Origin: a virus
Lineage: Duplodnaviria > Heunggongvirae > Uroviricota > Caudoviricetes
Length of the DNA: 36,958 bases
Reading direction: 5' to 3' (one strand)
IMG/VR virus record: IMGVR_UViG_2897346870_000003
Span: 1 to 36,958 of that record
Shown here: piece by piece, positions 1 to 35,427 of the stretch
Layout of the letters: every line of letters starts with the position of its first letter
Position numbering within the stretch: position 1 is the stretch's first letter
Notes under the pieces: generated by a model
The model's database searches: none
Seen by the model: the letters and a program-made list of their open reading frames with translations, nothing else
What the model was told of the DNA's origin: nothing
Translations under genes and position numbers: made by a program

Positions 1-1131
1 TCACCATGCTACTTTGCTCCATCCTTTGCCTCGGTCGTCATGATAACGATCGGTTTGTTGTTGTGTTTTGTGACCAAGTAGTTTTTGTGTATCTAACCCC
101 TGTTCTTTATACAGGCGTTCAGATAACGACCTTTGCTCATGGAATGTTGCAGGTGAACCTTTCCCCCAGTCAATTCCTGCTAAGTCCCTCGCTTTACTGA
201 AATTCATCGTCAATGTGTTAGATTTAACCTGTGTTCCACGTTCAGCCTGTGAAGTCGTACGGGAAAAATGTACAAGGTATGGGCTGACTGCATAGTCACG
301 GCAGCGGGCTACTACATCGCGTAAACTCCAGTTAATCGCATTGAGGTGAAGAGAAAGAGGAATTGCGATTTTGCTCCCGGTCTTTTCCTGAATGACGTGA
401 AGATGATCCTCCCAAATATCACTAAATTTCATTTTGGATATATCTCCCAAACGCTGCCCAGTGACTAAAGCTAGGAGCATGGCATTTCCCATGTAACGAT
501 GAGTGGCGTCTGCGATATCGAATATTTTTTGCCATTCTTCCAGGCTGAGGCGTTGACGGGTAATTTTTCTTCTTGGTTGTTTAGTGGCTAATGCTGGGTT
601 ATAGCCAGGCGGAACTTCGCCGTAATGCTGTGCTTCCTTAAACACATCGATCAATACAGACCTTACGACTTGGGCCATTCTCGGCTGTCCCGCAGAGATA
701 TACTCTTCAAGCAATTGTGCTATATCTCTGACATCAACGGCTGAGATCAACTTCATTCCTGCTCGTTCCCTGAGCAAGGATACTGGTTTAGCTTTTTGCT
801 TATAGGTGTTGAGTCTTATATCACCACTTTTGAGCCTGTCATCCTGGATCGCTTGATAGCGATCTAACCAGGTTGACGTTGTTATCGCTTTTCCTTTACT
901 GGTTGCGATCCTGTCACTGATGGCCAGAATCTGCCGGGTTCTTTGTTCAGCCAGGCGCGTATTGGCTTCAGTGGCAATAGCGATAGCTTCAGCTTCGTTT
1001 GTTCCCAAAGCATGGAATTTCCCTGTTATTGGATGCTTATACCGCCAATAGACTTTATTTACCTTCCTACTATAAAGCGGATATAAGTTAGGGACTGAAA
1101 CATTATTCTTACGCGGTCTGGCTGCCATCAA
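1..1131 (-). CDS. int: Tyrosine integrase (lambda Int family), complete; stop codon at window positions 1-3
   Basis: 376-aa ORF; C-terminal HxxR...Y region (LLGHKTQQQTDRYHDDRGKGW) resembles the lambda Int catalytic tail as recalled; N-terminus is Int-like. Confidence 0.95.
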   Translation of the reverse strand: MMAARPRKNNVSVPNLYPLYSRKVNKVYWRYKHPITGKFHALGTNEAEAIAIATEANTRLAEQRTRQILAISDRIATSKGKAITTSTWLDRYQAIQDDRLKSGDIRLNTYKQKAKPVSLLRERAGMKLISAVDVRDIAQLLEEYISAGQPRMAQVVRSVLIDVFKEAQHYGEVPPGYNPALATKQPRRKITRQRLSLEEWQKIFDIADATHRYMGNAMLLALVTGQRLGDISKMKFSDIWEDHLHVIQEKTGSKIAIPLSLHLNAINWSLRDVVARCRDYAVSPYLVHFSRTTSQAERGTQVKSNTLTMNFSKARDLAGIDWGKGSPATFHEQRSLSERLYKEQGLDTQKLLGHKTQQQTDRYHDDRGKGWSKVAW

Positions 1132-1354
1132 TCAAAATCCGTTGCAAAAGTAATGAGTTATTTTTCTTAATTACTGGCGTTACCAGCTCTCCAACTAACT
1201 CGGCGTCCTCGCGCACTCGCCATAACCGACCTTGTTTCATTGCCGGTGGACAAAACAAATTCTGCTTAGCATAACGACGCAATGTGGAAACGCTTGGAGG
1301 ATTACTTCTGTATTTTTCAGAAGCCCATTCTTCAAGAGTTAACATTTGAAGCAT
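1109..1354 (-). CDS. xis: Excisionase (lambda Xis-like)
   Basis: 81 aa; MLTLEEWA...RRYAKQNLFCPPAMKQGRLW resembles lambda Xis as recalled; overlaps int start; AAGGTGA Shine-Dalgarno upstream. Confidence 0.8.
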   Translation of the reverse strand: MLQMLTLEEWASEKYRSNPPSVSTLRRYAKQNLFCPPAMKQGRLWRVREDAELVGELVTPVIKKNNSLLLQRILIDGSQTA

Positions 1355-1427
1355 ATGCGATCACCTTATTACTTCACTAACTGTTCAGTCTCTGCATATC
1401 GACCCTGCACGGTCGGTTAGTTTCTCC

Positions 1428-1516
1428 ACAAAACAGAGAAGAACACCTGCGGTGGCAGCAGCCCGGATGGATTGGGTTATGAGCCCGTCGTCCGATGATG
1501 CTCTTCTCTGTTTTGT
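1428..1516. repeat. 15-bp perfect inverted repeat (ACAAAACAGAGAAGA / TCTTCTCTGTTTTGT) flanking a 59-nt GC-rich spacer; part of a structured non-coding region
   Basis: Read directly: 1428-1442 is the exact reverse complement of 1502-1516. A further 10-bp stem at 1525-1534/1552-1561 follows. Confidence 0.7.
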
Positions 1517-1780
1517 AAAAAGGACGGTACCAGCCGGAAGCAAGGGTACAAGCTGGTACCGCCAAGACTACACACAGCATAAAGTTGTGGTGCCGGGTGC
1601 CTCCCGGTGCCTGGCGAAGGTTGTACACCAGACGGGTGGGTATCCACAGAAGGTCGACTGTCAGCCTCAACCTTAACCCGCGTGCGCTGAGCCGCATTCA
1701 CCACAACGCTAAGGATTCTCTCTGGTTGAAAATACTTAGCTGTTATGTGCCTGCTTTTAGCCACATCAGGCGAGGTGGAC

Positions 1781-1840
1781 CTGGTTATTCCCCAACAACA
1801 AGGATTCGGTTAATCTGGTTATCCCCAACAACGCAAAAGG
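1781..1840 (+). repeat. Two direct repeats CTGGTTAT(T)CCCCAACAAC immediately upstream of the 1848 ORF (candidate regulator-binding sites)
   Basis: Read directly: CTGGTTATTCCCCAACAAC at 1781-1799 and CTGGTTATCCCCAACAAC at 1815-1832. Confidence 0.6.
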
Positions 1841-1847
1841 AAAAGAA

Positions 1848-2282
1848 ATGTCCGGTAATATCTATACGCTGTACAAATCCCACTGTGAAAATGTTGGAAA
1901 GTATCGGGGCATTGAAATCAGTGGGGTAGTGTCATCAGTCGAAATAAGCAAAGTGGAATCAAGGGCAACATTACTTACTCTTCTGGACCTTGTCTTACAT
2001 GAGCACCGGAAGAAATTCGGCACTCCCTATAATCAGTTGAATGGGAAAAAGGCTCTGGTTCACCTTATTCTGATGAAGCATCACTGGATGCCAAAACAGA
2101 TTAATGAGATGAAATTTGATGAACTTCTTCTTTCAATTCAGGATGAACTCACACTTGATAAAATAAGCGTAACCGCCCAGAAATTTTTAGATTATCGAGA
2201 CTGGAGATCACAAATTCATCACTTTGATGATTTTGATGAAAATGAATGGGATCCTAATTTGTCTGCACAATATCTAAAGTAG
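1848..2282 (+). CDS. Hypothetical protein (144 aa), rightward accessory gene convergent with the leftward early operon
   Basis: ATG with AAGGAAAAG Shine-Dalgarno; no family recognised from the sequence. Confidence 0.6.
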   Translation: MSGNIYTLYKSHCENVGKYRGIEISGVVSSVEISKVESRATLLTLLDLVLHEHRKKFGTPYNQLNGKKALVHLILMKHHWMPKQINEMKFDELLLSIQDELTLDKISVTAQKFLDYRDWRSQIHHFDDFDENEWDPNLSAQYLK

Positions 2283-2460
2283 CATCCCGTGATAAAACCG
2301 TGATTTCCTGATCCAGTTTTTTTAAGGAGTCTATTGTTTCCTGTCGATAAGACAGCAATTCACGAAGCTGGTTTATAGCTGCCAGCTTCTTTGTCATCCA
2401 CTCGTAAATTTCCTCATTTGTGTATCCGGGCGCGACGATTTTTGGTTCTGTTTTGTGCAT
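2254..2460 (-). CDS. Hypothetical small coiled-coil protein (68 aa), first gene of the leftward early operon
   Basis: Start placed at the internal ATG (MHKTEPKIV...) because it is preceded by a strong GAGGAGGTG Shine-Dalgarno; sits downstream of the pL-like promoter. Confidence 0.6.
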   Translation of the reverse strand: MHKTEPKIVAPGYTNEEIYEWMTKKLAAINQLRELLSYRQETIDSLKKLDQEITVLSRDATLDIVQTN

Positions 2461-2519
2461 TTCACACCTCCTCAAGTTATCAGTTACTTGTTGATGGGGA
2501 CCAGATTGTTAAAGAGCTA

Positions 2520-2543
2520 AGCGTCCTGTAGGGCGCTTTTTTG
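2520..2543 (+). terminator. Rho-independent terminator on the plus strand (7-bp stem AGCGTCC/GGGCGCT, loop TGTA, T6)
   Basis: Hairpin followed by TTTTTT read directly; on the minus strand the stem is preceded, not followed, by the A/T run. Confidence 0.55.
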
Positions 2544-2610
2544 TTGCTAACGAATCATCCTGGACTTCATATGCCCCAGGCGGCTACTTCGTGGGCGTCC
2601 TGCCTGTTCG

Positions 2611-2655
2611 TTGTTTCTCTTGGGTACATTATGTATCTCATGGGTACATTGTCAA
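2611..2655 (-). promoter_or_regulatory. pL-like promoter (minus strand TTGACA-16-CATAAT) overlapping OL operators
   Basis: Minus-strand -35 at 2650-2655 and -10 at 2628-2633. ATGTATCTCATGGGTACAT (2631-2649) has the same 19-bp architecture as the operator at 3436-3454. Confidence 0.55.
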
Positions 2656-2694
2656 GTATGAAAAAACCTGCCGAAGCAGGTTCATAGACATTGA

Positions 2695-3369
2695 TTAGGC
2701 TTTGATTTTGTATCTTCTTGGTTTTCCTGAGAAAATCACTGTACCAATTATAGAGCAATTACCGTTGATTTTAATGTAAGGCTCAGGCCAATTTGGGTTT
2801 AACGCTTTGAGATAACGCTGTGTCCCATCTTCTATCAACCTTTTGAAGGTGGTTTCACCTGTATCGTGCATCAGTGCAATAACGTCGTCACCGTGGCAGG
2901 CAGGTACTTCAGGATCGACAAAAATCATGTCTCCCGGGCGGTACTCATCAATCATTGAATCACCTATCACCCGCAAGATATAAGTCATTTCCCCACAGGG
3001 TACAGGGCAGGGATACGTTTCTGCTGTGCTCAAATCAACCTCAGAATATCCAACTTCTTTCCATGCTCCGGCCTGTACCCATGATATGACAGGGACTAAT
3101 GTGATTTGTTTATTAGTGATTGAAACATCAGGTTTTTTTGTGATGTTCGTTGTCTGGTGTTCTTGATCGAGCCATCCGACAGGCAGGTCGAAACATTTTT
3201 CGATGTGTCGTGCCATGCTGTCACCGATATTTTTAGTAGCACCATCTCCCATAAACCTGCTGGTCTGGGTTGGCTCGCGATCAATCATAGTGGCAAAGGA
3301 AGAATTCCCGCCAACACCATCTCTCAGTTTTCTGGCGTTAGACCGCCGGATGTCATGGATTGTTTTCAT
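2695..3369 (-). CDS. cI: CI-type repressor with LexA-like S24 autopeptidase domain
   Basis: 224 aa; N-terminal HTH region and C-terminal S24-like segment (LVPVISWVQAGAW...RVIGDSMIDEY); divergent from cro across an operator region. Confidence 0.92.
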   Translation of the reverse strand: MKTIHDIRRSNARKLRDGVGGNSSFATMIDREPTQTSRFMGDGATKNIGDSMARHIEKCFDLPVGWLDQEHQTTNITKKPDVSITNKQITLVPVISWVQAGAWKEVGYSEVDLSTAETYPCPVPCGEMTYILRVIGDSMIDEYRPGDMIFVDPEVPACHGDDVIALMHDTGETTFKRLIEDGTQRYLKALNPNWPEPYIKINGNCSIIGTVIFSGKPRRYKIKA

Positions 3370-3375
3370 AACGAA

Positions 3376-3454
3376 ATTAAAACCCTTGTACCGTTAAGGT
3401 ACAAGTATCTTGAAGGTTCATTTCAATCATGTAATATGTACACCGGAGGTACAT
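3376..3454. promoter_or_regulatory. OR region: perfect 21-bp palindrome CTTGTACCGTTAAGGTACAAG (3385-3405) and operator ATGTACACCGGAGGTACAT (3436-3454), with candidate pRM and pR
   Basis: Palindromes read directly. Minus-strand TTGTAC-17-TTTAAT ends about 7 nt before the cI ATG, implying a leaderless cI mRNA; plus-strand TTGAAG...TAATAT is a pR candidate. Confidence 0.6.
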
Positions 3455-3459
3455 ATTGT

Positions 3460-3660
3460 ATGAAAGCGTATTGGGACTCTTTAACCAAAGAACAGCAGGA
3501 CGAGTTGGCCGGAAAAGTTGGCTCAACACCTGGCTACTTACGGCTGGTTTTCAATGGCTATAAAAAAGCCAGTTTTGTGCTGGCTAAAAAACTTGAGCAA
3601 TGCACGTCAGGTGCAATTACGAAATCTGACTTAAGACCGGATATCTATCCGAAAGATTAG
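3460..3660 (+). CDS. cro: Cro-like HTH regulator
   Basis: 66 aa, GGAGG Shine-Dalgarno, divergent from cI; HTH-like segment ELAGKVGSTPGYLRLVFNG. Confidence 0.85.
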   Translation: MKAYWDSLTKEQQDELAGKVGSTPGYLRLVFNGYKKASFVLAKKLEQCTSGAITKSDLRPDIYPKD

Positions 3661-3691
3661 CAGAACACTTTCAATTTTTAACCACAGAACG

Positions 3692-4255
3692 ATGAGGCTA
3701 ATCGTGGGTAAGCATCACTGGAAAATAGAAAAACAGCCTGAGTGGTACGTGAAAGCTGTCAGAAAAACTATCGCGGCGTTGCCGGGTGGTTACGCTGAAG
3801 CGGCTGACTGGCTGGATGTAACAGAGAACGCTTTATTCAACCGCCTTCGTGCAGATGGCGATCAGATTTTTCCGCTGGGATGGGCAATGGTTTTACAGCG
3901 TGCTGGTGGCACTCACTTCATTGCTGATGCTGTGGCGCAGTCTGCAAATGGCGTATTTGTGTCTCTTCCTGACGTCGAGGATGTGGACAACGCCGATATT
4001 AACCAGCGTCTGCTGGAAGTCATTGAACAGATCGGCAGTTATTCAAAACAGATTCGTTCAGCAATCGAAGACGGTGTAGTGGAACCGCATGAGAAGACAG
4101 CAATTAACGACGAGCTGTATCTCTCAATTTCGAAGCTGCAGGAGCATGCAGCACTGGTCTACAAAATCTTTTGCATTTCAGAAAGTAATGACGCCCGCGA
4201 GTGTGCAGCTCCGGGCGCCGTGGCGTGTCGTGACTGTGGAGAAACTAACGCATGA
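3692..4255 (+). CDS. CII-like regulatory protein (CP76 family-like), putative
   Basis: 187 aa directly downstream of cro; family assignment is from recalled features, not searched. Confidence 0.6.
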
Positions 4256-4590
4256 ACAGTTTAACAACACACTACCGTCGCTCGCAACTGATTGCGCTTC
4301 CTGTACCGGGTGGAAAAGCGAAGGTGGAGTATTGCTATGCAGTAAATGTACCAGGTGACAGGGAAATTGTAACCCACAGCTTTGCTGAGTGGGCTGTGGG
4401 TGATTTCAACCGGCAGAAGGAGACAGTCCTTTGCGACAAGTTAACCGCTGGTTCAAAGATCACTACGGAGTGCCCGTCAGAGTCATTCGTTGGGAACCGG
4501 AAACACAACGTGTTATCTACCTCCGCGAAGGCTATGAGCATGAGTGCTTCAGCCCGCTCGAACAGTTTCGTCGTAAATTCAGGGAAATAG
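4252..4590 (+). CDS. Hypothetical protein (112 aa)
   Basis: ATGA overlap with the upstream gene; a more protein-like alternative frame is noted in findings. Confidence 0.5.
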
Positions 4591-4599
4591 AGGTCGGTC

Positions 4600-5541
4600 A
4601 TGAGCACTAAATTAACCGGCTATGTATGGGATGGTTGTGCTGCATCAGGCATGAAATTATCCAGCGTGGCAATTATGGCCCGCCTGGCTGATTTCAGTAA
4701 TGACGAAGGTGTGTGCTGGCCATCAATTGAAACCATTGCCCGCCAGATTGGCGCGGGGATGAGTACCGTCAGAACGGCTATCGCACGGCTGGAAGCAGAA
4801 GGCTGGTTAACGCGTAGGGCGCGTCGCCAGGGTAACCGCAATGCGTCGAATGTTTATCAGCTTAACGTTGCGAAGCTTCAGGCAGCGGCATTTTCTCAAC
4901 TGTCAGATTCTGACCCGTCAAAATCTGACGCATCAAAATCTGACCCGTCAAAATTTGATGCGTCGAAATCTGGCAAAAAAGCGGGTTTTCACCCGTCAGA
5001 ATCTGGTGGGGATCCGTCAGTAAAATCAAAACATGATCCGTCAGATAAAAAAACTTCTCGTCCGGACGCTTCGCAACCGGACACGCAGACGGCTGAACAG
5101 GATTTTTTAACTCGCCATCCTGATGCGGTTGTATTCAGCCCTAAAAAGCGCCAGTGGGGGACGCAGGATGATTTGACCTGCGCACAGTGGCTCTGGAAAA
5201 AAATCATCGCCCTGTACGAGCATGCCGCCGAATGTGACGGCGAGGTGGTTCGTCCCAAAGAACCGAACTGGACAGCCTGGGCAAACGAAATTCGCCTGAT
5301 GTGTGTGCAGGATGGTCGTACTCATAAACAAATCTGCGAGATGTACAGCCGCGTCAGTCGCGATCCGTTCTGGTGCCGTAACGTGCTCAGCCCGTCGAAG
5401 CTGCGGGAAAAATGGGATGAGCTTTCCCTGCGCTTATCGCCGTCCGTCAGCACGTACACCGAAAAACGCGAAGACCCGTACTTCAAAGCCAGTTACGACA
5501 ACGTGGACTACAGCCAGATCCCGGCAGGATTCAGGGGGTGA
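4600..5541 (+). CDS. Replication initiation protein (lambda O-like; N-terminal HTH, internal iteron-encoded repeats)
   Basis: 313 aa; HTH-like N-terminus; the central SDSDPSKSDASKSDPSKFDASKS repeat is encoded by DNA iterons, the lambda-O arrangement. Confidence 0.8.
   Translation: MSTKLTGYVWDGCAASGMKLSSVAIMARLADFSNDEGVCWPSIETIARQIGAGMSTVRTAIARLEAEGWLTRRARRQGNRNASNVYQLNVAKLQAAAFSQLSDSDPSKSDASKSDPSKFDASKSGKKAGFHPSESGGDPSVKSKHDPSDKKTSRPDASQPDTQTAEQDFLTRHPDAVVFSPKKRQWGTQDDLTCAQWLWKKIIALYEHAAECDGEVVRPKEPNWTAWANEIRLMCVQDGRTHKQICEMYSRVSRDPFWCRNVLSPSKLREKWDELSLRLSPSVSTYTEKREDPYFKASYDNVDYSQIPAGFRG
4897..5050 (+). repeat. Origin-like iterons: about five tandem 15-bp repeats (CCGTCAAAATCTGAC-like) plus two GATCCGTCAG repeats, followed by an A-rich tract
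   Basis: Read directly within the O-like coding sequence. Confidence 0.7.
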
Positions 5542-5543
5542 TC

Positions 5544-6032
5544 ATGAGTCTTTTGAATGACGTTCAGAAATTCATTGAAGCCCATCCGGGGTGTACTTCC
5601 GGAGACATTGCGGATGCTTTTGCAGGTTACTCACGACAGCGCGTTCTGCAGTCAGCAAGCAAGTTACGTCAGAGTGGGCGTGTGGCTCACCGTTGTGAAG
5701 GGGATACACGCAGACATTTCCCGCGGCTGACTGAGATACCGCAGGAGCCGGAACCGCAACCAGTTCGTGAATCCAGACCTGTGCGCAATTTCTATGTCGG
5801 CACTAACGATCCCCGGGTGATTTTGTGCCTGACCCGCCAGGCGGAAGAACTGGAGTCCAGGGGCTTATACCGTCGTGCTGCAACGGTGTGGATGGCGGCA
5901 TTCCGTGAAAGCCACTCCCAGCAAGAGCGAAACAATTTTCTTGCGCGTCGTGAGCGGTGTTTACGGAAAAGCAGCAAGCGCGCTGTATCGGTTGAAGAGT
6001 GGTATCTGTCAGGGAATTACGTGGGGGCTTAA
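5544..6032 (+). CDS. Putative transcriptional regulator with a PerC-like C-terminal motif
   Basis: Start at the ATG 5 nt after AGGGGG; segment AEELESRGLYRRAATVWMAAF resembles the recalled PerC/Pch-family signature; unverified. Confidence 0.5.
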   Translation: MSLLNDVQKFIEAHPGCTSGDIADAFAGYSRQRVLQSASKLRQSGRVAHRCEGDTRRHFPRLTEIPQEPEPQPVRESRPVRNFYVGTNDPRVILCLTRQAEELESRGLYRRAATVWMAAFRESHSQQERNNFLARRERCLRKSSKRAVSVEEWYLSGNYVGA

Positions 6033-6358
6033 TGACGACGTTAACTCAATGCCAGCAGCAGGTGCTGGATATGCTGATTTCTTACCAGAAAGAACGTGGC
6101 TTCCCGCCAACCAATCAGGAGGTGGCTACCATGCTGGGATACCGTTCAGTGAATGCAGCGGTGGAGCATCTTCGCGCACTGGAGAAAAAAGGCGTCATCA
6201 CGATAAAGCGTGGCGTGGCCCGGGGCATCACGCTTCATACCGCGGTGAAGGACGACGACAGCGAGGTGGCCGGGATTATCCGCGCACTGCTTGCTGGTGA
6301 GGAAAACGCCAGGCTGCGTGCAGCCCACTGGTTACATGAGAGGGGGCTGAAAGTATGA
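6032..6358 (+). CDS. LexA N-terminal DNA-binding-domain homologue without the peptidase domain
   Basis: 108 aa; MTTLTQCQQQVLDMLISYQKERGFPPTNQEVATMLGYRSVNAAVEHLRALEKKGVITIKRGVARGI parallels the recalled LexA N-terminus; no S24 domain follows. Confidence 0.7.
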   Translation: MTTLTQCQQQVLDMLISYQKERGFPPTNQEVATMLGYRSVNAAVEHLRALEKKGVITIKRGVARGITLHTAVKDDDSEVAGIIRALLAGEENARLRAAHWLHERGLKV

Positions 6359-6744
6359 AGCTGATTCTGCCTTTTCCACCCAGCGTGAACACCTACTGGC
6401 GACACCCCAACAAAGTGGCATTTGCTGGTAAGAGCCTGATAAGCGCGGCGGGGCGAAAATTCCAGAGTGCGGCGTGCACAGCAATAGTTGAGCAGTTACG
6501 TCGTCTGCCGAAACCAACGTCGGCACCTGCTTCAGTGGAGATCGTGTTGTTTCCTCCGGATAACCGGATCCGCGATCTGGACAACTATAACAAGGCGCTG
6601 TTTGACGCCCTGACCCACGCGGGTGTGTGGGAAGACGACAGCCAGGTGAAAAGAATGCTGGTGGAGTGGGGACCGGTTATCCCGGAAGGGAAGGTCGAGA
6701 TCACTATCAGTAAGTACGAGAAAACGGCGGGTGCAGCCGCCTGA
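6355..6744 (+). CDS. rusA: Holliday junction resolvase RusA
   Basis: 129 aa; ...RIRDLDNYNKALFDALTHAGVWEDDSQV is a RusA-type catalytic region. Confidence 0.9.
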   Translation: MKLILPFPPSVNTYWRHPNKVAFAGKSLISAAGRKFQSAACTAIVEQLRRLPKPTSAPASVEIVLFPPDNRIRDLDNYNKALFDALTHAGVWEDDSQVKRMLVEWGPVIPEGKVEITISKYEKTAGAAA

Positions 6745-6763
6745 TCAAGAGGAGAAACGAAGT

Positions 6764-7561
6764 ATGAATAATCTGATGGTCATTGATGGTATTGAAGTTC
6801 GTCGTGATGCTTATGGGCGTTACAGCCTGAACGATCTGCACAGGGCTGCCGGTTCTCTGGATAAGCATAAGCCTGCATTCTGGCTCCGCAATGAGCAAAC
6901 TGAACGTTTAATAAGCGAGTTGCAGATTTGCAACTCGGTCAATATAGAGCCAGTTAACGTTATTCGTGGCGGAAATAACCAGGGGACGTATGTCTGCAAA
7001 GAACTGGTGTATGCCTATGCAATGTGGATCAGCCCGTCATTCCATCTGAAGGTGATCCGTACTTTCGATATGGTAACCAGCGCATCGGAAAAATTATCCG
7101 GGCAGGCTGCTGACAAGATGCAGGCTGGCGTGATTCTGCTGGACTTTATGCGCCGGGAGTTAAACCTGTCTAACTCTTCAGTGCTTGGTGCCTGTCAGAA
7201 ACTCCAGGAGGCTGTTGGCTTACCGAATCTGGCACCGCGCTATGCCATTGATGCTCCTGCTGACGCGCCTGATGGCTCAAGCCGTCCCACGCTGTCACTG
7301 AGTGCACTGCTGAAGCAGTATGGTATCCGCCTGACAGCTAATCAGGCATATCACCAGATGGTGAAGCTGGGGATCGTCGAGCAGCGCGAACGATACAGCC
7401 GTACCGCGATTAACAACATCAAAAAATTCTGGTCGCTGACAGCGAAAGGCTGCATGTTCGGCAAGAACATCACCAGTCCCGCAAATCCGCGCGAGACGCA
7501 GCCGCATTTCTTCGAATCCCGATTCCCTGAGCTGTTAAAGCTGCTCGATACCGTTCATTGA
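6764..7561 (+). CDS. KilA-N domain DNA-binding protein (antirepressor-like C-terminus)
   Basis: Start at the ATG after AGGAG; N-terminal KilA-N-like segment (MVIDGIEVRRDAYGRYSLNDLHRAAG). Confidence 0.8.
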   Translation: MNNLMVIDGIEVRRDAYGRYSLNDLHRAAGSLDKHKPAFWLRNEQTERLISELQICNSVNIEPVNVIRGGNNQGTYVCKELVYAYAMWISPSFHLKVIRTFDMVTSASEKLSGQAADKMQAGVILLDFMRRELNLSNSSVLGACQKLQEAVGLPNLAPRYAIDAPADAPDGSSRPTLSLSALLKQYGIRLTANQAYHQMVKLGIVEQRERYSRTAINNIKKFWSLTAKGCMFGKNITSPANPRETQPHFFESRFPELLKLLDTVH

Positions 7562-7562
7562 G

Positions 7563-8558: not shown

Positions 8559-8575
8559 TTTTGTGGAGAAGGTTG

Positions 8576-8926
8576 ATGCGTGATATGTATGAAGTATTGG
8601 ACCGCTGGGGTGCATGGGCTGCAGCAGATAACAGTGGTGTGGACTGGCAGCCTGTTGCTGCAGGGTTTAAAGGTTTACTACCTCATGGAAAGAAAACACG
8701 CCAACAATGCGATGATGATGAAGGCATCATGATTGACAGCTGTGTTGCGCGATTGCGGAAATATAAGCCAGAAGAATATGAACTGATCATTGCTCACTTT
8801 GTTATCGGTATTTCACTCCGTTCAATAGCAAAGAAACGGAAATGCTCTGACGGGTCAATCAGAAAACAACTTCAAGCAGCAATAGGAGTGATTGAAGGTA
8901 TTTTGTTGATTATTAAGCCCCTGTAG
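8576..8926 (+). CDS. Q: Late-gene antitermination protein Q
   Basis: MRDMYEVLDRWGAWAA... with conserved YELIIAHFVIGISLRSIAKKRKCSDGSIRKQL segment; GGAGAAGG Shine-Dalgarno. Confidence 0.88.
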   Translation: MRDMYEVLDRWGAWAAADNSGVDWQPVAAGFKGLLPHGKKTRQQCDDDEGIMIDSCVARLRKYKPEEYELIIAHFVIGISLRSIAKKRKCSDGSIRKQLQAAIGVIEGILLIIKPL

Positions 8927-8929
8927 GGC

Positions 8930-26108: not shown

Positions 26109-26121
26109 TTTCGGAGTATAT

Positions 26122-27450: not shown

Positions 27451-28526
27451 ACGATAACGTCACGCTACGGGTAAATGGCCGGGAGTGGAATGGCTGGACA
27501 TCGGTGCGCATCGGTGCCGGTATTGAACGGCTGGCGCGGGATTTCAGCGTGGAGATCACCCGCCAGTGGCCGGGAGATGAGGGTATCACCACGCTTCAGC
27601 CGCGCATTAAAAATGGTTCAAAAGTGGAAGTGCTGATTGGTGATGAGCTGGTGATCACCGGCTGGGTGGAGGCGACCCCCGTTCGTTACGATGCCCGTTC
27701 GGTCAGCACCGGTATTGCCGGACGTAGTCTGACTGCTGACCTGATTGACTGTGCAGCCGAACCGACACAGTTTAACGGACGATCGCTGGTACAGATTGCG
27801 CAGGCGCTTGCTGCGCCTTTCGGCATTGAGGTGGTGAACAGCGATGCGCCGTCGGGTGTTATTCCGGATGTCCAGCCTGATCACGGTGAAACGGTGATCG
27901 AGGTGATCAACAAAATACTCGGTCAGCAGCAGGCGCTGGCTTATGACGACCCGCACGGCAGGCTGGTGATTGGTGGTATTGGCTCAACGCGGGCACATAC
28001 CGCGCTGGTACTTGGGGAAAACATCCTTTCCTGTGATACGGAGAAGAGTATCCGGGAGCGGTTTTCAGTTTACCAGGTGGCGGGGCAGCGTGCCGGAAAC
28101 GACGATGATTTCGGTGAGGCCACCACCACCGCGCTGCGGGCCCGCACAGAGGATGCATTTATTGCCCGTTACCGTCCGATGTATATCAGGCAGACAGGGC
28201 AGGCTACGGGGGCAGGCTGTATTGCGCGTGCTGACTTTGAAGCCCGACAACGGGCGGCGCGGACGGATGAAACCACCTATGTGGTGCAGGGCTGGCGACA
28301 GGGTAACGGTACGCTGTGGCAGCCCAACCAGCGGGTGATTGTCTTCGATCCGGTCTGTGGTTTCGACAATACCGAACTGCTTGTCTCGGAAGTCACGTTT
28401 ACTCAGGACCAGAATGGCACCCTGACGGAAATCCGTGTCGGCCCACCTGATGCTTATCTGCCTGAACCCGAAGCCCCCGGCGCGCGGAAAAAGAAAAAAG
28501 CCAGAGTACAGGAGGACCCGTTCTGA
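27447..28526 (+). CDS. Baseplate hub protein (Mu gpP / P2 gpD-like)
   Basis: 359 aa; position and size. Confidence 0.85.
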   Translation: MNDNVTLRVNGREWNGWTSVRIGAGIERLARDFSVEITRQWPGDEGITTLQPRIKNGSKVEVLIGDELVITGWVEATPVRYDARSVSTGIAGRSLTADLIDCAAEPTQFNGRSLVQIAQALAAPFGIEVVNSDAPSGVIPDVQPDHGETVIEVINKILGQQQALAYDDPHGRLVIGGIGSTRAHTALVLGENILSCDTEKSIRERFSVYQVAGQRAGNDDDFGEATTTALRARTEDAFIARYRPMYIRQTGQATGAGCIARADFEARQRAARTDETTYVVQGWRQGNGTLWQPNQRVIVFDPVCGFDNTELLVSEVTFTQDQNGTLTEIRVGPPDAYLPEPEAPGARKKKKARVQEDPF

Positions 28527-29074
28527 TGAAGGCGATTGAAACCATACAGCGACAACTCCTCGGCCTGATTGGGCGGGCGGTGGTGAAAAGCATCAGTGCC
28601 GCCACGAAATGTCAGACCGTGGATGTGTCCCTGATTGCCGGTGAACCCAAAGCCGGGGTTGAACATCTTGAACCCTACGGTTTTACCGCAAGGGCAAACA
28701 GCGGTGCGGAAGCGGTGGTGTTGTTTCCGGATGGTGACCGTTCTCATGCGGTGGTTGTTACGGTGTCGGACCGGCGCTACCGCCTGAAAGGGCTGCAGAC
28801 GGGTGAGGTGGCTGTCTATGACGATCAGGGGCAGTCCGTGACGCTGACCCGGGAGGGGATCGTGGTGGACGGTGCAGGTAAAACGATCACGTTTCGCAAT
28901 TCACCTAAAGCACGTTTTGAAATGGACCTGGAAGTGACAGGACAGGTGAAAGACCTGTGCGACTCCAGCGGCACCACCATGTCAGCGATGCGGCTTGCCT
29001 ATAACGGGCATCGTCACAGAGAGAACGGTCAGGGCAGTAACACCGACAAACCTGATAAAGCGATGGAGGCATGA
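28526..29074 (+). CDS. Baseplate spike/assembly protein (Mu gp45 / gpV-like)
   Basis: 182 aa; position. Confidence 0.8.
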   Translation: MKAIETIQRQLLGLIGRAVVKSISAATKCQTVDVSLIAGEPKAGVEHLEPYGFTARANSGAEAVVLFPDGDRSHAVVVTVSDRRYRLKGLQTGEVAVYDDQGQSVTLTREGIVVDGAGKTITFRNSPKARFEMDLEVTGQVKDLCDSSGTTMSAMRLAYNGHRHRENGQGSNTDKPDKAMEA

Positions 29075-29499
29075 TGGAACTGTGGCTGACGGTGAACGGT
29101 AAACGCACCTGCGCCAGCGCACCGCTGGATCCGCTGACCCGCGCCGTGGTGATTTCCCTGTTTACCTGGCGGCGGGCGGAGCCTGATGACAACGCCGACG
29201 TCCCGATGGGATGGTGGGGGGATACCTGGCCTGCGGTACAGAATGACCGTTACGGCTCCCGACTGTGGCTGCTTCAGCGCAGCAAACTGACCAATCAGCT
29301 GGTGCTGACGGTAAGGGGGTATATCCGCGAATGCCTGCAATGGATGATTGATGACGGCGTGGTGTCCCGTATTGATCTGGATATCCGCCGCACCGGGATT
29401 AATGAACTGGGTAACAGTATCACTCTCTGGCGTCGTGACGGACCGGTAATGATTTCTTTTGATGATCTGTGGAGTGCGATAACGCATGGCGGACAGTGA
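29071..29499 (+). CDS. Baseplate protein (Mu gp46-like)
   Basis: 142 aa; position. Confidence 0.8.
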   Translation: MMELWLTVNGKRTCASAPLDPLTRAVVISLFTWRRAEPDDNADVPMGWWGDTWPAVQNDRYGSRLWLLQRSKLTNQLVLTVRGYIRECLQWMIDDGVVSRIDLDIRRTGINELGNSITLWRRDGPVMISFDDLWSAITHGGQ

Positions 29500-30544
29500 A
29501 TTTCAGCGCCCGACGCTGGCAGAAAATATCAGTATGCTCCGTAACGATTTATTCGCCAGGCTGGACGTCAGCGACACGCTCCGGCGCATGGATGAAGACG
29601 TGCGGGCAAAGGTGTATGCGGCGGCGCTGCATACGGTTTACGGGTACATCGATTATCTGGCAATGAACATGCTGCCTGACCTGTGCGATGAGTTCTGGCT
29701 GGCGCGACATGCTGCGATGAAACGGTGTCCGCGCAAGGGGGCCACGGCTGCCAGCGGGTATATGCGCTGGGAAGGTGTCAGCGATGGCCTGAAGGTGACC
29801 GCCGGGAGTGTTATTCAGCGCGATGACCTGGTTCAGTATACTGCAACTGCCGATGCAACCAGCTCCGGTGGTGTCCTGCGCGTGCCGATCGCCTGCTCAA
29901 ATGCAGGCGCGGTCGGTAACGCTGACGACGGTACGGCATTAATCCTGGTCACGCCGGTGAATGGTCTGCCGTCTTCCGGTGTGGCTGACACCCTGACAGG
30001 CGGATTTGAAACTGAAGAGCTGGAAACGTGGCGCGCCCGCGTCATTGAGCGGTATTACTGGACGCCGCAGGGCGGGGCTGACGGGGACTATGTCGTCTGG
30101 GCTAAAGAAGTGCCCGGCATTACCCGCGCATGGACATACCGTCACTGGATGGGAACGGGAACTGTCGGTGTGATGATTGCCAGCAGTGACCTGATTAATC
30201 CCATTCCGGAAGAATCAACGGAAACGGCGGCAAGACAACATATCGGGCCACTGGCCCCGGTGGCAGGCTCTGATTTGTATGTGTTCAGGCCGGTGGCACA
30301 TACGGTGGATTTTCATATCCGCGTGACGCCGGACACACCGGAAATACGGGCTGCCATCACCGCGGAGTTGCGTTCGTTCCTGCTGCGTGATGGTTATCCG
30401 CAGGGAGAACTGAAGGTATCGCGTATCAGTGAGGCGATTTCCGGTGCGAACGGGGAATACAGCCATCAGTTGCTTGCACCGGCAGACGATATCTCCATTG
30501 CAAAAAATGAACTGGCGGTACTGGGGACGATTTCATGGACGTGA
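29486..30544 (+). CDS. Baseplate J-like protein (Mu gp47-like)
   Basis: 352 aa; position. Confidence 0.88.
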
Positions 30545-31119
30545 CAAACGATGATTACATCCGCCTGTTATCGGCACTGTTGCCGCCCGGTCCGGCGTGG
30601 TCAGCCAGCGATCCGGCGATTGCCGGTGCGGCACCGTCATTAACCCGTGTTCATCAGCGTGCGGATGCCCTGATGCGGGAGCTGGATCCGCGCACCACCA
30701 CTGAACTGATAAACCGCTGGGAGCGTCTGTGCGGTCTGCCGGATGAATGTATTCCGGCGGGAACGCAGACCCTTCGCCAGCGTCAGCAACGGCTGGATGC
30801 GAAGGTTAACCTGGCGGGCGGCATCAACGAGGATTTTTATCTTGCACAGCTTGCTGCCCTGGGCAGACCAGATGCCACCATCACGCGATACGACAAAAGC
30901 ACGTTCACCTGCTCATCGGCCTGTACTGACGCGGTGAATGCGCCGGAATGGCGGTATTACTGGCAGGTCAACATGCCAACCACCACCAACACCACCTGGA
31001 TGACATGTGGCGATCCCTGTGATTCCGCACTGCGTATCTGGGGTGACACCGTTGTCGAGTGTGTGCTTAACAAACTCTGCCCGTCGCATACCTACGTAAT
31101 TTTTAAATATCCGGAGTAA
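30535..31119 (+). CDS. Baseplate/tail protein (Mu gp48-like, DUF2313)
   Basis: 194 aa; position before the tail fibre gene. Confidence 0.85.
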
Positions 31120-31122
31120 TCC

Positions 31123-31875
31123 ATGCATCGTATAGACACGAAAACCGCGCAGAAGGATAAGTTCGGCGCGGGTAAGAACGGTTTTACCCGTGGTAACCCC
31201 CAGACTGGTACGCCTGCCACCGATCTGGATGATGACTACTTTGACATGTTGCAGGAGGAGCTTTGCAGCGTTGTGGAGGCATCCGGTGCCAGCCTGGAGA
31301 AGGGGCGGCATGACCAGCTGCTTACCGCGCTTCATGCGCTGCTGTTAAGCCGCAAGAATCCGTTTGGCGATATCAAATCGGATGGCACGGTGAAAACGGC
31401 TCTCGAAAACCTTGGTTTGGGGTTGGGTTCGGCATTACCCGTTGGCGTACCTGTTCCGTGGCCTTTGACCACACCGCCAACAGGCTGGATGAAATGCAAC
31501 GGTTCCAGATTTAGCCTGACAGGTTACCCCGCGCTTGCCGCTGTGTTCCCTTCTGGTGTGCTTCCAGACCTGCGCGGTGAGTTTATCCGAGGATGGGATG
31601 ATGGGCGCGGTGTCGATGCTGGCCGTGCAATAATGACAACGCAAGAGGATGCCATCCAAAATATTACCGGCGAAGTTGGTTTTATTCAGTATTTTGGCGA
31701 AACGCATCATTCTGGCGCGCTGTTTCCCGGTGGTGCTCAAAACATCACCAACGTAGATCCGGGCGGTGATACTAGAGCTCAAAGTGTGTTCTTTGATGCG
31801 TCAAGATCTGTACGAACCGCATCAGAAAACCGTCCGCGTAACATCGCGTTTAACTACATTGTAAGGGCAGCATGA
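31123..31875 (+). CDS. Tail fibre protein (constant N-terminus fused to the currently expressed variable C-terminus)
   Basis: 250 aa; the hix-like crossover site lies at codons 95-102 (ENLGLGLG). Confidence 0.85.
31400..31425. other. Left inversion crossover site (hix/gix-like): CTCTCGAAAACC-TT-GGTTTGGGGTTG
   Basis: Left half matches the recalled hixL half TTCTTGAAAACC in 10 of 11 positions; core TT. Confidence 0.7.
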
Positions 31876-32483
31876 TGACCGTAAACGAAATCACTTTAGA
31901 CGAAAATGGATTTGCCACGGAAGCTGGCTTTATTACCGTTTACAACTACAACGGCGAAACGCGGGAGTATATTTCTTCATCACTTGAATTCCTGCCTTTT
32001 GGTGTTGGCGTTCCTGCTCATTCCACAACTGAGGCACCAGGAGAAAGCAAGGCCGGTTTTGCCATCCGCAGGACCGCTGATTTGACTGGCTGGGAGCTTG
32101 CGCCAGACCATCGCGGCGAAACTGTTTACAGCACGACCAATGGCAAACCTGTAACTGTTTCACAGTTGGGCGAATACCCGGAAGGAACCACCGTCAAAGC
32201 GCCTTCTACGCAATACGACAAATGGGATGGCAAAAAATGGGTGACTGATAGCGATGAACAGCATCGCGCCGCAGTAGAAGCGGCAGAAGCACAGCGCCAG
32301 TCGCTGATTGATGCTGCAATGGCTTCCATCAGTCTGATTCAACTGAAATTACAGGCCGGGCGGAAGCTGACGCAGCCAGAAAACACCCGACTTAACGCTG
32401 TGCTGGATTATATTGACGCGGTGACGGCAACAGATACCAGCACAGCGCCGGATGTCATCTGGCCTGAACTGCCGGAGGCGTAG
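31872..32483 (+). CDS. Tail fibre assembly protein (expressed orientation)
   Basis: 203 aa after the fibre gene; conserved C-terminal ...VIWPELPEA. Confidence 0.85.
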
Positions 32484-32892
32484 GCCATTCAATATCTGGC
32501 ACACTGGAGGTATCAACCAGCTCCAGTGCGTCCAGATAATCCAGCCACGAATTATATTGCGCCAGTTCCTCGCCTTTCAGACGACCAATAGCGGCTTTAC
32601 CGGGCCATTGTTTACTGTTCATGTATTCGTTGGCCTGATTAATTAATAGCTGTCTTTTTGACTCAGAAATTTCAATAAGTTCTTCATGCGTGGGTGAAGG
32701 AATATCTGCCCACGCAGGCATTCCGTCTGCACCTGCAATACGTCGCTTACCCTGCGGAGGTGTCGCCATAAACGACTCGGCACGTCGGGTTTCAATATCT
32801 TTTGCATCATCAGGCCATGTGCCGGAATCGCGGTATACGGCCTCATTACCAGCCAGATAAAACGCATTTTTTTTAGCACTGTATTTGTACAT
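32455..32892 (-). CDS. Tail fibre assembly protein (alternative, silent orientation)
   Basis: 145 aa; related C-terminus ...[13 protein letters not shown]; inverted within the segment. Confidence 0.8.
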   Translation of the reverse strand: MYKYSAKKNAFYLAGNEAVYRDSGTWPDDAKDIETRRAESFMATPPQGKRRIAGADGMPAWADIPSPTHEELIEISESKRQLLINQANEYMNSKQWPGKAAIGRLKGEELAQYNSWLDYLDALELVDTSSVPDIEWPTPPAVQAR

Positions 32893-32893
32893 A

Positions 32894-33466
32894 TTATTTC
32901 CCTACCGCAATCCAGAAAAATGAACTCATGCTGGCTACTGGTGCTCCGCCCGCTGTTGGAATCATCAGATTTCGGACGCCGCATCCTAAATTAGTTATCG
33001 TTGGCGCTGAAATTACTGGCGACTGAACTACGTTAGGAAGCGATGCCTGCTGAGGACCAAATCCCACATACATCGGGTATGCAGAGAACGCGACAGGAAA
33101 CGTAATAAAGATCTCTCCAGTTGATGATGGATTGGCTGTCCCCCACTGAATAATCAGACCTGACGGTAATTTTTGCCAGCCATGGCTGGTCAGGCTGGAT
33201 GTGAAGTCATTCATATCCGGAATCTGATTTGCCCCTGAGCCAACATCCCTTTGAGCCGCACTTTTCAGATCAAGATAAGTTCTTAGTTCAGCCTTATCCT
33301 TACCGCTTAAATCTGTCAGTGTCTGGTCTTTTGGTTGCGCATAGTCTTTTGTTGCCAGACGAACTACTGTATTTGTTCTGGCGAATCGCATATACGGGGC
33401 ATTGACGTTACTACTGTCAAACCCTGCAATTTTACATTCATCACCAATTAATGCATCTCCCAAACC
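32894..33466 (-). CDS. Alternative tail-fibre variable C-terminal segment (no native start; expressed only after inversion)
   Basis: Minus-strand ORF whose 5' end crosses the right recombination site; joining the constant part at the crossover gives in-frame ...ENLGLGDALIGDECKIAG... Confidence 0.7.
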   Translation of the reverse strand, partial: GLGDALIGDECKIAGFDSSNVNAPYMRFARTNTVVRLATKDYAQPKDQTLTDLSGKDKAELRTYLDLKSAAQRDVGSGANQIPDMNDFTSSLTSHGWQKLPSGLIIQWGTANPSSTGEIFITFPVAFSAYPMYVGFGPQQASLPNVVQSPVISAPTITNLGCGVRNLMIPTAGGAPVASMSSFFWIAVGK

Positions 33467-33480
33467 AACGTTTATGAAAA
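33455..33480. other. Right inversion crossover site: ATCTCCCAAACC-AA-CGTTTATGAAAA, inverted relative to the left site
   Basis: Core AA is the reverse complement of the left core TT; the 13-bp inverted repeat AAC(C/G)TTGGTTTGGG is shared with the left site. Confidence 0.7.
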
Positions 33481-33534
33481 TGCAGAAATAACGAGCAAAT
33501 GGCATCATTCCTGCTTTTGTCAGGGAGATCTACC

Positions 33535-34089
33535 ATGCTTATTGGCTATGTACGTGTGTCAACAAATGACCAGAACACAGATCTACAACGTAATGCGCTG
33601 AACTGTGCAGGATGCGAGCTGATTTTTGAAGACAAGATAAGCGGTACAAAGTCCGAAAGGCCGGGACTGAAAAAACTGCTCAGGACATTATCGGCAGGTG
33701 ATACGCTGGTGGTCTGGAAACTGGACCGACTGGGGCGCAGTATGCGGCATCTTGTCGTGCTGGTGGAGGAGTTGCGCGAACGAGGCATCAACTTTCGTAG
33801 TCTGACGGATTCAATTGATACCAGTACCCCAATGGGGCGCTTTTTCTTTCATGTGATGGGTGCCCTGGCTGAAATGGAGCGTGAACTGATTGTTGAAAGA
33901 ACAAAAGCTGGACTGGAAGCTGCTCGCGCACAGGGACGAATTGGTGGACGTCGTCCCAAACTTACACCAGAACAATGGGAACAGGCCGGACGATTAATTG
34001 CATCAGGCGTTCCTCGCCAGAAGGTGGCGATTATCTATGATGTTGGTGTGTCAACTTTGTATAAGAGGTTTCCTGCAGGGGATAAATAA
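33535..34089 (+). CDS. pin: Serine DNA invertase (Hin/Gin/Pin family)
   Basis: MLIGYVRVSTNDQNTDLQ... with catalytic Ser, C-terminal HTH; AGGGAGA Shine-Dalgarno. Confidence 0.95.
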   Translation: MLIGYVRVSTNDQNTDLQRNALNCAGCELIFEDKISGTKSERPGLKKLLRTLSAGDTLVVWKLDRLGRSMRHLVVLVEELRERGINFRSLTDSIDTSTPMGRFFFHVMGALAEMERELIVERTKAGLEAARAQGRIGGRRPKLTPEQWEQAGRLIASGVPRQKVAIIYDVGVSTLYKRFPAGDK

Positions 34090-34195
34090 AGTTAAAGACA
34101 CTTTGTGTACAAAAGAAAGTAAAACAACAGCAACTTGTTGCAATTTTATCAATAAAAGTAGTATTGTCGTGAAAAATTGATTAAAGATTAATATT

Positions 34196-35029
34196 ATGCA
34201 TGTTTTTGATAATAATGGAATTGAACTGAAAGCTGAGTGTTCGATAGGTGAAGAGGATGGTGTTTATGGTCTAATCCTTGAGTCGTGGGGGCCGGGTGAC
34301 AGAAACAAAGATTACAATATCGCTCTTGATTATATCATTGAACGGTTGGTTGATTCTGGTGTATACCAAGTCGTAGTATATCTGGCGTCATCATCAGTCA
34401 GAAAACATATGCATTCTTTGGATGAAAGAAAAATCCATCCTGGTGAATATTTTACTTTGATTGGTAATAGCCCCCGCGATATACGCTTGAAGATGTGTGG
34501 TTATCAGGCTTATTTTAGTCGTGCGGGGAGAAAGGAAATTCCTTCCGGCAATAGAACGAAACGAATATTGATAAATGTTCCAAGTATTTATAGTGGCAGT
34601 TTTTGGGCGTCTATAATACGTGGAGAACTATCAGAGCTTTCACAGCCTACAGATGATGAATCGCTTCTGAATATGAGGGTTAGTAAATTAATTAAGAAAA
34701 CGTTGAGTCAACCCGAGGGCTCCAGGAAACCAGTTGAGGTAGAAAGACTACAAAAAGTTTATGTCCGAGACCCGATGGTAAAAGCTTGGATTTTACAGCA
34801 AAGTAAAGGTATATGTGAAAACTGTGGTAAAAATGCTCCGTTTTATTTAAATGATGGAAACCCATATTTGGAAGTGCATCATGTAATTCCCCTGTCTTCA
34901 GGTGGTGCTGATACAACAGATAACTGTGTTGCCCTTTGTCCGAATTGCCATAGAGAATTGCACTATAGTAAAAATGCAAAAGAACTAATCGAGATGCTTT
35001 ACGTTAATATAAACCGATTACAGAAATAA
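34196..35029 (+). CDS. mcrA: McrA-type HNH restriction endonuclease (modified-cytosine restriction)
   Basis: 277 aa; C-terminal HNH motif (CENCG...HHVIPLSSGGADTTDNCVALCPNCH); the pin-mcrA pairing next to the icd fragment matches the recalled e14 arrangement. Confidence 0.85.
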   Translation: MHVFDNNGIELKAECSIGEEDGVYGLILESWGPGDRNKDYNIALDYIIERLVDSGVYQVVVYLASSSVRKHMHSLDERKIHPGEYFTLIGNSPRDIRLKMCGYQAYFSRAGRKEIPSGNRTKRILINVPSIYSGSFWASIIRGELSELSQPTDDESLLNMRVSKLIKKTLSQPEGSRKPVEVERLQKVYVRDPMVKAWILQQSKGICENCGKNAPFYLNDGNPYLEVHHVIPLSSGGADTTDNCVALCPNCHRELHYSKNAKELIEMLYVNINRLQK

Positions 35030-35167
35030 AATTATTTATTAAAGTCACATTTAAGACGTAATATCCTACAGGGTAAAAATTTTCTCTGATCTTAACTTCT
35101 GCAAATGTTAACTGCTATTTTTATGCTAAAAATGGTTATCAAAACTCAAAAACACATGTTTATAATC

Positions 35168-35204
35168 AATGAGTTATAGAAATGCTAAGGGCTAATGAGT
35201 TATA
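35168..35204 (+). repeat. Direct repeats AATGAGTTATA (x2, 26 bp apart) in the AT-rich att-proximal arm; candidate Int arm-type or IHF sites
   Basis: Read directly at 35168-35178 and 35194-35204. Confidence 0.4.
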
Positions 35205-35262
35205 TGCAAATTAGTAAAATTATGTTGCTATGTCAAATAGTTACGATTTAGTCATCTAACTA

Positions 35263-35427
35263 ATGCTGCGCCATATGGGTTGGACTGAAGCGGCTGACCT
35301 GATTGTTAAAGGTATGGAAGGCGCAATCAATGCCAAGACCGTAACTTATGACTTCGAACGTCTGATGGAAGGCGCTAAGCTGCTGAAATGTTCAGAGTTT
35401 GGTGAAGCGATCATCGAAAACATGTAA
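35263..35427 (+). pseudogene. icdC: Displaced 3' end of isocitrate dehydrogenase gene icd (icdC remnant) marking attR
   Basis: Translates to [54 protein letters not shown], the Icd C-terminus as recalled; no upstream icd sequence. Confidence 0.9.

Follow-up and report, generated by a model that had tools for sequence, protein, structure and literature searches.

An apparently intact SfV/e14-group prophage at icd of Escherichia coli and its relation to the defective e14 element of K-12

Does the icd locus of Escherichia coli harbour a functional relative of the defective element e14 of strain K-12, and what has e14 lost in comparison with it? The question is raised by a stretch of 36,958 nucleotides (IMG/VR virus record IMGVR_UViG_2897346870_000003, positions 1 to 36,958; hereafter the window), which is E. 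coli chromosome: its final 1.5 kilobases (kb), containing icdC, iraM and ycgX, are 99-100% identical to K-12, and positions 1-35262 (about 35 kb) are the right-hand, int-to-attR portion of a prophage inserted at the 3' end of icd. A first-pass annotation, made from the letters and open reading frames (ORFs) alone, had described positions 1-35427 as an intact mosaic phage with lambdoid regulation, HK97-like head and Mu-like contractile tail, i.e. as a full-length relative of e14. Domain searches bore out this architecture module by module. The right boundary had to be moved inwards, since positions 35263-35427 are host sequence, the displaced 3' end of icd (icdC); completeness holds for the visible counterpart of e14 but is unsupported at the left end, which lies outside the window.

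According to the present analysis, positions 1-35262 very likely represent the int-to-attR part of a myovirus prophage, temperate and packaged from cos, which belongs to the SfV/SfI/SfII/SfIV/e14 group and lies in the 3' end of icd. All genes of the visible part that functional relatives are known to need are present at full length; our confidence in its gene-level intactness is high, whereas that in the viability of the prophage is moderate. The gene content, the intactness relative to SfII and SfV, the cis sites and the deletion junctions of e14 described below are direct observations.

Alignment with SfII and with K-12 e14

The packaging and morphogenesis genes are collinear with those of Shigella phage SfII: window positions 13527-25432 correspond to SfII 1-11906 (97.3% identity) and positions 26098-31421 to SfII 11952-17275 (97.2% identity), in both cases with 0 gaps. 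All proteins from terS to gp48 (22 of 22) are full length and 93-100% identical to their SfII counterparts; cII, YmfM, the replication protein, RusA, KilA-N, DUF968, Q, holin, endolysin, Rz and HNH are likewise full length. No insertion sequence (IS) element, stop codon or frameshift was found in any window gene of known role. The earlier claim that packaging, head, sheath/tube/baseplate, fibre, lysis and replication genes are present and undisrupted is thus upheld: all modules were recovered uninterrupted by Pfam, PHROG and orthologue lengths, and alignment with the orthologues of SfII and of another icd-site prophage, 82.0312, gave no hidden frameshift or nonsense mutation in genes of known role. 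Its remark on coupled starts is equally correct, the late-gene starts overlapping or abutting the preceding stops (14143/14146, 16070/16070, 19732/19735, 20620/20623, 22839/22839, 23195/23195, 27447/27450 and 29071/29074).

The comparison with e14, performed by blastn of the window against K-12, yielded five collinear blocks: int-xis-ymfH (window 1-1778, 91% identity), ymfK through codon 79 of the O-like gene (2546-4833, 97.7%), the 3' part of terL, ymfR and the first 140 codons of the portal gene (14740-16477, 97.7%), the 3' part of J, ymfQ and the constant fibre part (29757-31421, 98.0%), and pin, mcrA, attR and the host flank (33456-36958, 98.9%). The last block is the pin-mcrA-icd corner by which the resemblance to e14 had originally been recognised, and attR is the same in both. 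Gene by gene, identities amount to 98-100% for the 3' part of terL, ymfR and the 5' part of the portal gene, 97-98% for the 3' part of J and ymfQ, and 96-97% for YmfT, YmfL and YmfM.

The whole-element alignment is collinear save for two clean deletions, so that the window reveals, as had been proposed, what e14 has lost. Deletion 1 (window 4834-14739; 9,906 base pairs, bp) fused the O-like gene to terL, giving ymfN (oweE'/aaaE'); it begins about 55 bp upstream of the iterons of the replication origin (ori) and removes ori, the nin region, Q, the lysis genes, cos, terS and the 5' part of terL. Deletion 2 (window 16478-29756; 13,279 bp) fused the portal to the baseplate J gene, giving beeE/jayE, and eliminates head and tail genes, from the 3' part of portal through the 5' part of J. 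Both junctions in K-12 are located at microhomologies of 3-4 bp (GGT and GGTA), and K-12 e14 is, to judge from the alignment, a derivative of the phage type seen in the window after two deletions by illegitimate recombination. The 23.2 kb lost and the 15.2 kb of e14 add up to 38.4 kb, a normal size for the SfV/e14 group. As a result of the gene losses in the two deletions, e14, which has been described as easily excisable (PMC2847215), excises without replication, lysis or particles. The K-12 deletion junction was present in 283 of 5426 complete genomes; the eight listed are all K-12 or laboratory-type strains.

Besides the deletions, e14 and the window differ by two small module swaps: the window possesses an ECs1072-family gene and a 68-residue gene in the position of ymfI/ymfJ, and the fibre-tip cassettes share no more than 45-70% identity, with homologous cassettes in opposite orientation. 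The left cargo of e14 consists of ymfD, ymfE and lit; the counterpart arm lies outside the window.

Integration, immunity, replication and lysis genes

The genes follow the lambdoid order int-xis / pL-OL-cI-OR-cro-cII-O(ori) / nin-Q / lysis / cos-terminase-head-tail (strands are given in brackets as + or -). The recombination module is of the IntE/XisE type and full length: the tyrosine integrase of 375 residues (1-1131, -; ATG at 1128, stop at 1-3; Pfam Arm-DNA-bind_1 and Phage_integrase) has 96% amino acid identity to K-12 IntE, and the excisionase (1109-1354, -), whose identical neighbours match PF07825 Exc, has 95% amino acid identity to K-12 XisE. The adjacent small ORF (1377-1697, -; 106 residues) is an orthologue of SfII orf35 with 94% amino acid identity. 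A hidden frameshift in this ymfH homologue was suspected, as K-12 YmfH matched two frames and the gene is annotated as frameshifted in 82.0312; it was ruled out by the likeness of the window ORF to SfII orf35, and the differences between the window and K-12 in this region are 1-bp indels. The K-12 "ymfH" annotation is another frame of the DNA that codes for the orf35 homologue in the window; this is a difference of frame and annotation in a small accessory ORF, and therefore no defect was counted. The same region, just upstream of xis, contains a long perfect inverted repeat, ACAAAACAGAGAAGAG ... CTCTTCTCTGTTTTGT (1430-1500, - strand; alignment columns 275-375), the stem arms of which are kept in K-12 and 82.0312 with a variable loop; it might constitute a structured RNA or a terminator instead of coding sequence.

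The ECs1072-family phage-associated protein (1848-2282, +; NCBIfam NF033230), which stands in place of ymfI/ymfJ of K-12 e14, is 100% identical to that of 82.0312. The immunity region follows with a pL-like promoter (2628-2655, -; 11 of 12 positions of the sigma-70 consensus) overlapped by an OL-like operator (2632-2648; TGTAC-N7-GTACA with one mismatch), the cI-type, LexA-like (S24) repressor YmfK (2695-3369, -; Pfam Peptidase_S24; 99% identity to SfV cI), an OR region (3387-3453) which lies between cI and cro and contains two exact copies of the TGTAC-N7-GTACA operator, and the cro-type repressor YmfT (3460-3660, +; 98% identity to SfV Cro); the operator motif was matched four times, versus 0.65 matches expected by chance. 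The CII-like regulator YmfL (3704-4255, +; Pfam Phage_CP76) and YmfM (4252-4590, +; cell division inhibitor in the K-12 annotation) complete the block, in which YmfK, YmfT, YmfL and YmfM exhibit 100%, 97%, 96% and 96% amino acid identity to K-12, respectively. In a further compared locus (L008, positions 1-7000), the int-xis-cI-cro block is 99.9% identical over 3.7 kb and runs straight into unrelated lysis and terminase genes (Terminase_6, ParB_N, TAGT, TrkH), which illustrates that the e14-type integration/immunity module recombines freely onto other phage bodies.

The O-like replication initiator (4600-5541, +; PHROG 391 "replication initiation O-like"; Pfam O-like HTH) is 98.7% identical to the SfII primosomal protein, and an internal ori with about six to seven 15-bp iterons (4888-5010) is located inside its gene. 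The nin-like region (5538-8926, +) contains, according to Pfam and comparison with 82.0312 and SfII, PerC-like, LexA-DNA-binding-like, RusA, KilA-N, DUF968/HNHc and Q genes, the Q antiterminator (8576-8926, +) being identified by Pfam. The missing dam gene was considered as a potential defect and rejected: no remnant is present at its position, and the dam-less arrangement also occurs in loci L007 and L009-L012. Among the ORFs scanned with Pfam and PHROG there was no family of the N-type early antiterminator or P/DnaC-type helicase loader; a 68-residue ORF downstream of pL is not arginine-rich, and SfII is organised likewise.

A tR'-like intrinsic terminator (10656-10677, +), read from the sequence, precedes the lysis genes in the position of a Q-dependent late leader and presumably functions as such. 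The S-type holin (10830-11156, +; Pfam holin), the endolysin (11160-11636, +; PHROG 90) and Rz (11620-12012, +) are all full length compared with SfII; the Rz1 lipoprotein gene (about 11897-12154, +) overlaps Rz, and its lipobox LLSGC is intact in the translation. A truncation of Rz, suggested by its 130 residues versus 144 in 82.0312, was dismissed, as the length equals that of SfII Rz.

Packaging, virion genes and the fibre switch

The packaging region is an HNH-cos-terS-terL unit with an SfV-like 10-nucleotide cos core. The HNH endonuclease beside cos (13176-13526, +; Pfam HNH), a packaging accessory of HK97-type terminases, is 91-94% identical to the SfII and 82.0312 orthologues, and the cos core TGCCCGCCCC (13592-13601, +) is identical to the 10-nucleotide cohesive end that was mapped experimentally in SfI (PMC3636060); its flanks align with the genome ends of SfV and SfII. 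The adjoining packaging and HK97-type head/neck module (13652-21180, +) comprises in order terS, terL, ymfR, portal, S78 protease, major capsid, a small ORF, connector, head closure, neck and tail terminator (Pfam: Terminase_4, TerL, Phage_portal, Peptidase_S78, Phage_capsid, gp6-like connector, head completion protein); its products are full length and gap-free versus SfII, with 93-100% amino acid identity. It is followed by a Mu-type contractile tail and baseplate module (21189-31119, +), again full length versus SfII, in the order gp38-like, sheath, tube, chaperone, tape measure, DNA circularisation N, P/gp44, gp45, gp46, gp47(J) and gp48 (Pfam: tail terminator, sheath, tube, TAC_7, tape measure, DNA_circ_N, GpP, Gp45, GP46, Baseplate_J, Gp48). 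This succession of HK97-type portal, S78 protease and capsid genes and ordered Mu gp38-gp48-type tail genes is SfV-like. Within the tail module, the sequence contains a slippery T TTT TTC (23446-23452) at the end of the chaperone gene, and the ORF in the -1 frame (23431-23613) extends to the start of the tape-measure gene; by analogy with the conserved phage G/GT arrangement, a programmed -1 frameshift (23446-23613, +) would extend the tail chaperone to position 23613.

Two other phage types were compared. HK97-like siphoviruses share the HK97-type head but possess a lambda-type, non-contractile tail; the window with its sheath and Mu-type baseplate does not have that combination. In Mu-like transposable phages, which are marked by MuA/MuB transposition-replication genes and random insertion, only the tail module resembles that of the window, whose replication is of the O/iteron type and whose integration proceeds via a tyrosine integrase; no transposase family was detected in any scanned ORF.

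The right end is of the e14 type, with an invertible fibre segment, pin and mcrA. The tail fibre region (31123-33468; Pfam Collar, Caudo_TAP and Gp53-like_C) contains a Pin-invertible segment (31412-33468) bounded by inverted repeats (31407-31421 and 33459-33473): a Pin-type site, AAACC TT GGTTT, crosses the fibre gene and has its inverted partner 2 kb away. In the present orientation a fibre of 250 residues is combined with a Tfa of 203 residues, and the silent cassette is encoded on the - strand (Tfa' 32455-32892; fibre C-terminus 32894-33458). In silico inversion of the segment resulted in an in-frame fibre of 287 residues followed directly by its own Tfa of 145 residues. The DNA invertase gene pin (33535-34089, +; Pfam Resolvase and HTH_7) is 98% identical to K-12 PinE, and the type IV methyl-directed restriction endonuclease gene mcrA (34196-35029, +; PADLOC mREase_IV, E=1e-199) is 98.6% identical to K-12 McrA.

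Taken as a temperate phage, these modules would act as follows. YmfK, the same protein as SfV cI, would hold pL and pR via the TGTAC-N7-GTACA operators; upon DNA damage, its RecA-stimulated self-cleavage would derepress cro, cII and O, and replication would begin at the iterons within the O-like gene. Q would let transcription pass the terminator that precedes the lysis genes and enter the late operon, and HNH together with TerS/TerL would cut cos (TGCCCGCCCC) and fill an HK97-type capsid, to which the Mu-type sheath, tube and baseplate would be joined. Pin would flip the 2-kb segment, thereby exchanging two fibre tips that are each paired with a separate chaperone, and IntE/XisE would excise the prophage at the icd att sites.

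Relatives, cargo slots and rival explanations

The attL site in icd and the cargo between int and icd are not seen because the window opens exactly at the int stop codon: the first window bases are the stop codon of this leftward gene. On the right, attR and the displaced icd 3' end (35263-35427, +) were delimited by alignment with K-12 attL/attR and 82.0312 attL and by the K-12 annotation. The homology to attL begins at ATGCTGCGCCA (35263-35273), and from 35263 onward the base-for-base alignment with K-12 attR/icdC identifies host DNA instead of phage DNA; attR and icdC, on the right side of the insertion, are the same as in K-12, and the attL side is outside the window. No tRNA was found in the window, and an Rfam search of it gave no match to an RNA family.

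In genomes encoding an identical Int, which are 98.4-99.9% identical to the window, icd lies approximately 5 kb beyond int, and eight of the eight such genomes shown contain in between an AAA/SMC-type ATPase of 858 residues and a divergent gene of 366 residues (11767-15605 in loci L006-L012 and 5985-9823 in L013, outside the window). If the left arm resembles theirs, a whole prophage of about 40.3 kb is predicted, which falls within the 37.1-41.5 kb spanned by the SfV to SfII genomes. The same arm is occupied by ymfD/ymfE/lit in K-12, by a DUF2357 pair in 82.0312 and by a DUF262 pair in vB_EcoM-689R6 (689R6). As the cargo differs among K-12, 82.0312, 689R6 and the identical-Int genomes, the int-attL arm behaves as an exchangeable cargo slot, probably for defence.

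Full-length icd-site prophages (82.0312, MEI2A-0323, S88 "e14" and the vB_EcoM-689R6 record) share locus, gene order and modules with the window and cover 82-94% of window positions 1-25000 at 96-97% identity. Several genomes contain the whole layout at the icd locus, and in MEI2A-0323 both halves of the window are contiguous. The mosaic differences among these prophages concern the presence of dam, the KilA-N allele (67% amino acid identity), the morons after Rz and the tape measure gene, the fibre tips and the int-icd cargo; 82.0312 has a GIY-YIG gene in place of mcrA. A further icd-site prophage, NC-SV, was set aside as a lambda-like siphovirus outside the family of the window. Among the records of the phage collection, vB_EcoM-689R6, SfII, SfI, SfIV and SfV came closest, with ST64B more distant.

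Compared with the Shigella phages, the window lacks dam and contains additional morons at 12334-13054 and 25530-26060. A two-gene moron with a GC content of 32% (8930-10544, -; component B 8930-9514, component A 9522-10544) lies antisense between Q and the late terminator/holin; both components of the candidate defence system PDC-M53 were matched by PADLOC (E=1.8e-54 and 2.1e-32), and SfII possesses the identical pair as orf49/50. The product of 194 residues contains several long hydrophobic stretches and by eye looks like a membrane protein; the product of 340 residues has no Pfam or PDB relative, and PDC-M53 was not mentioned in the literature searched. In relatives, this position is taken in locus L006 by Kiwa (KwaA/KwaB) and in L007, L009, L010 and L012 by an N6_N4 methyltransferase. 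Between Rz1 and HNH, two small low-GC ORFs (12334-13054, -; about 111 residues, Cys/His-rich, and 68 residues) match PHROG 12178 and 22590 (function unknown) and no Pfam, NCBIfam or PADLOC entry; a hairpin is located at about 12816-12845. SfII has an IS911 remnant and another ORF at this position, 82.0312 an ORF of 161 residues. A moron of 176 residues with an N-terminal hydrophobic anchor (25530-26060, +; GC 34%; PHROG 5485, function unknown) is situated in the tail operon between the tape measure gene and gene N; it gave no PDB, Pfam or PADLOC match and does not occur in SfII; at the same place in 82.0312 there is an OB-fold gene on the reverse strand. PDB sequence searches with the morons yielded nothing significant. 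That the low-GC morons represent uncharacterised host-protecting or anti-phage functions in exchangeable slots is a tentative and rather doubtful proposal, which draws on the Kiwa, methyltransferase or OB-fold genes in the corresponding slots of relatives.

Could the prophage look intact and yet be cryptic, with a defect in attL or the left arm outside the window or with subtle mutations, so that it performs at most an e14-like excision and forms no virions? Partial prophages are indeed common at this locus: when 5426 complete E. coli genomes were searched with window positions 1-25000, 5007 matched part of the query and 122 contained at least 80% of it, and in 82.0312 itself the fibre gene is truncated and mcrA is reduced to a remnant. 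The attL site, as stated, is outside the window. Yet over 17 kb of late genes there is no frameshift, stop or indel relative to SfII, a plaque-forming relative, all cis sites examined (cos, slippery site, fibre inversion, att, iterons and operators) are intact, and Int and Xis share 95-96% identity with the proteins of K-12, whose e14 is described as easily excisable (PMC2847215); we consider a cryptic state unlikely. It is far less probable still, and hardly credible, that the element is a domesticated producer of tails or particles (tailocin-like or transducing-particle-like) kept by the host and not a selfish phage. The contractile Mu-type tail module with its switchable fibres and the host-useful defence cargo (mcrA and the PDC-M53 pair) would suit such a role, but the set of head, packaging, cos, replication, immunity and integration functions is complete, the nucleotide identity to the bona fide phages SfII and SfV is 96-97%, and the loss of modules that characterises tailocins is nowhere apparent.

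Several points nevertheless weigh against a functional temperate prophage of the SfV/e14 group. Regulation, induction and virion production are what we infer from the sequence, with which missense or regulatory defects may be compatible; with attL and the left arm outside the window, completeness of the whole element is unproven. A helicase-loader gene is not recognisable among the scanned ORFs, though the SfII arrangement is alike, and the extra morons (the PDC-M53 pair, the two small reverse genes and the ORF of 176 residues) lengthen a genome that is packaged from cos. Moreover, the closest phage record with an e14-type int, vB_EcoM-689R6, gives no evidence of an isolated virion: it was rejected as such because it stems from a prophage-sequence study of clinical isolate genomes and includes host genes.

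Within the family, the Shigella phages SfII, SfV, SfI and SfIV integrate at tRNA-thrW, have different int/xis genes and carry the O-antigen modification genes gtrABC beside int, whereas the window combines e14-type int/xis with the icd site and carries pin, an invertible fibre and mcrA in place of the gtr genes. No match to SfII int/xis and no gtr-like ORF or Pfam match was found in the window, which separates it from the serotype-converting subgroup, but not from the SfV-like morphogenetic family. Both the literature and current annotations already cover this phage family, its mosaic build and the fact that e14 is defective, and the finding is ordinary rather than new. The widely cited primary analysis of e14 by Mehta et al. 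in 2004 reportedly already related the element to SfV. The mosaic is shared by SfV, SfI, SfII and SfIV, the K-12 annotation already names ymfN a chimeric replication/terminase protein, and the 2013 paper that described the SfI family as lambdoid, cos-packaging Myoviridae compared SfI with the full-length "e14" of strain S88 (PMC3636060).

The present comparison is thus mainly a tidy confirmation, which supplies base-exact coordinates for the losses of K-12 e14 and opens no new question. It also bears on immunity: the repressor/Cro pair and operators (2695-3660) are essentially identical in K-12 e14, SfV and the window prophage, and K-12 strains with e14 should in consequence resist phages of SfV immunity; one immunity type common to all three matters for the choice of indicator strains. 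If the low-GC morons were indeed protective, the e14/SfV family would be a handy natural scaffold for the discovery of defence genes.

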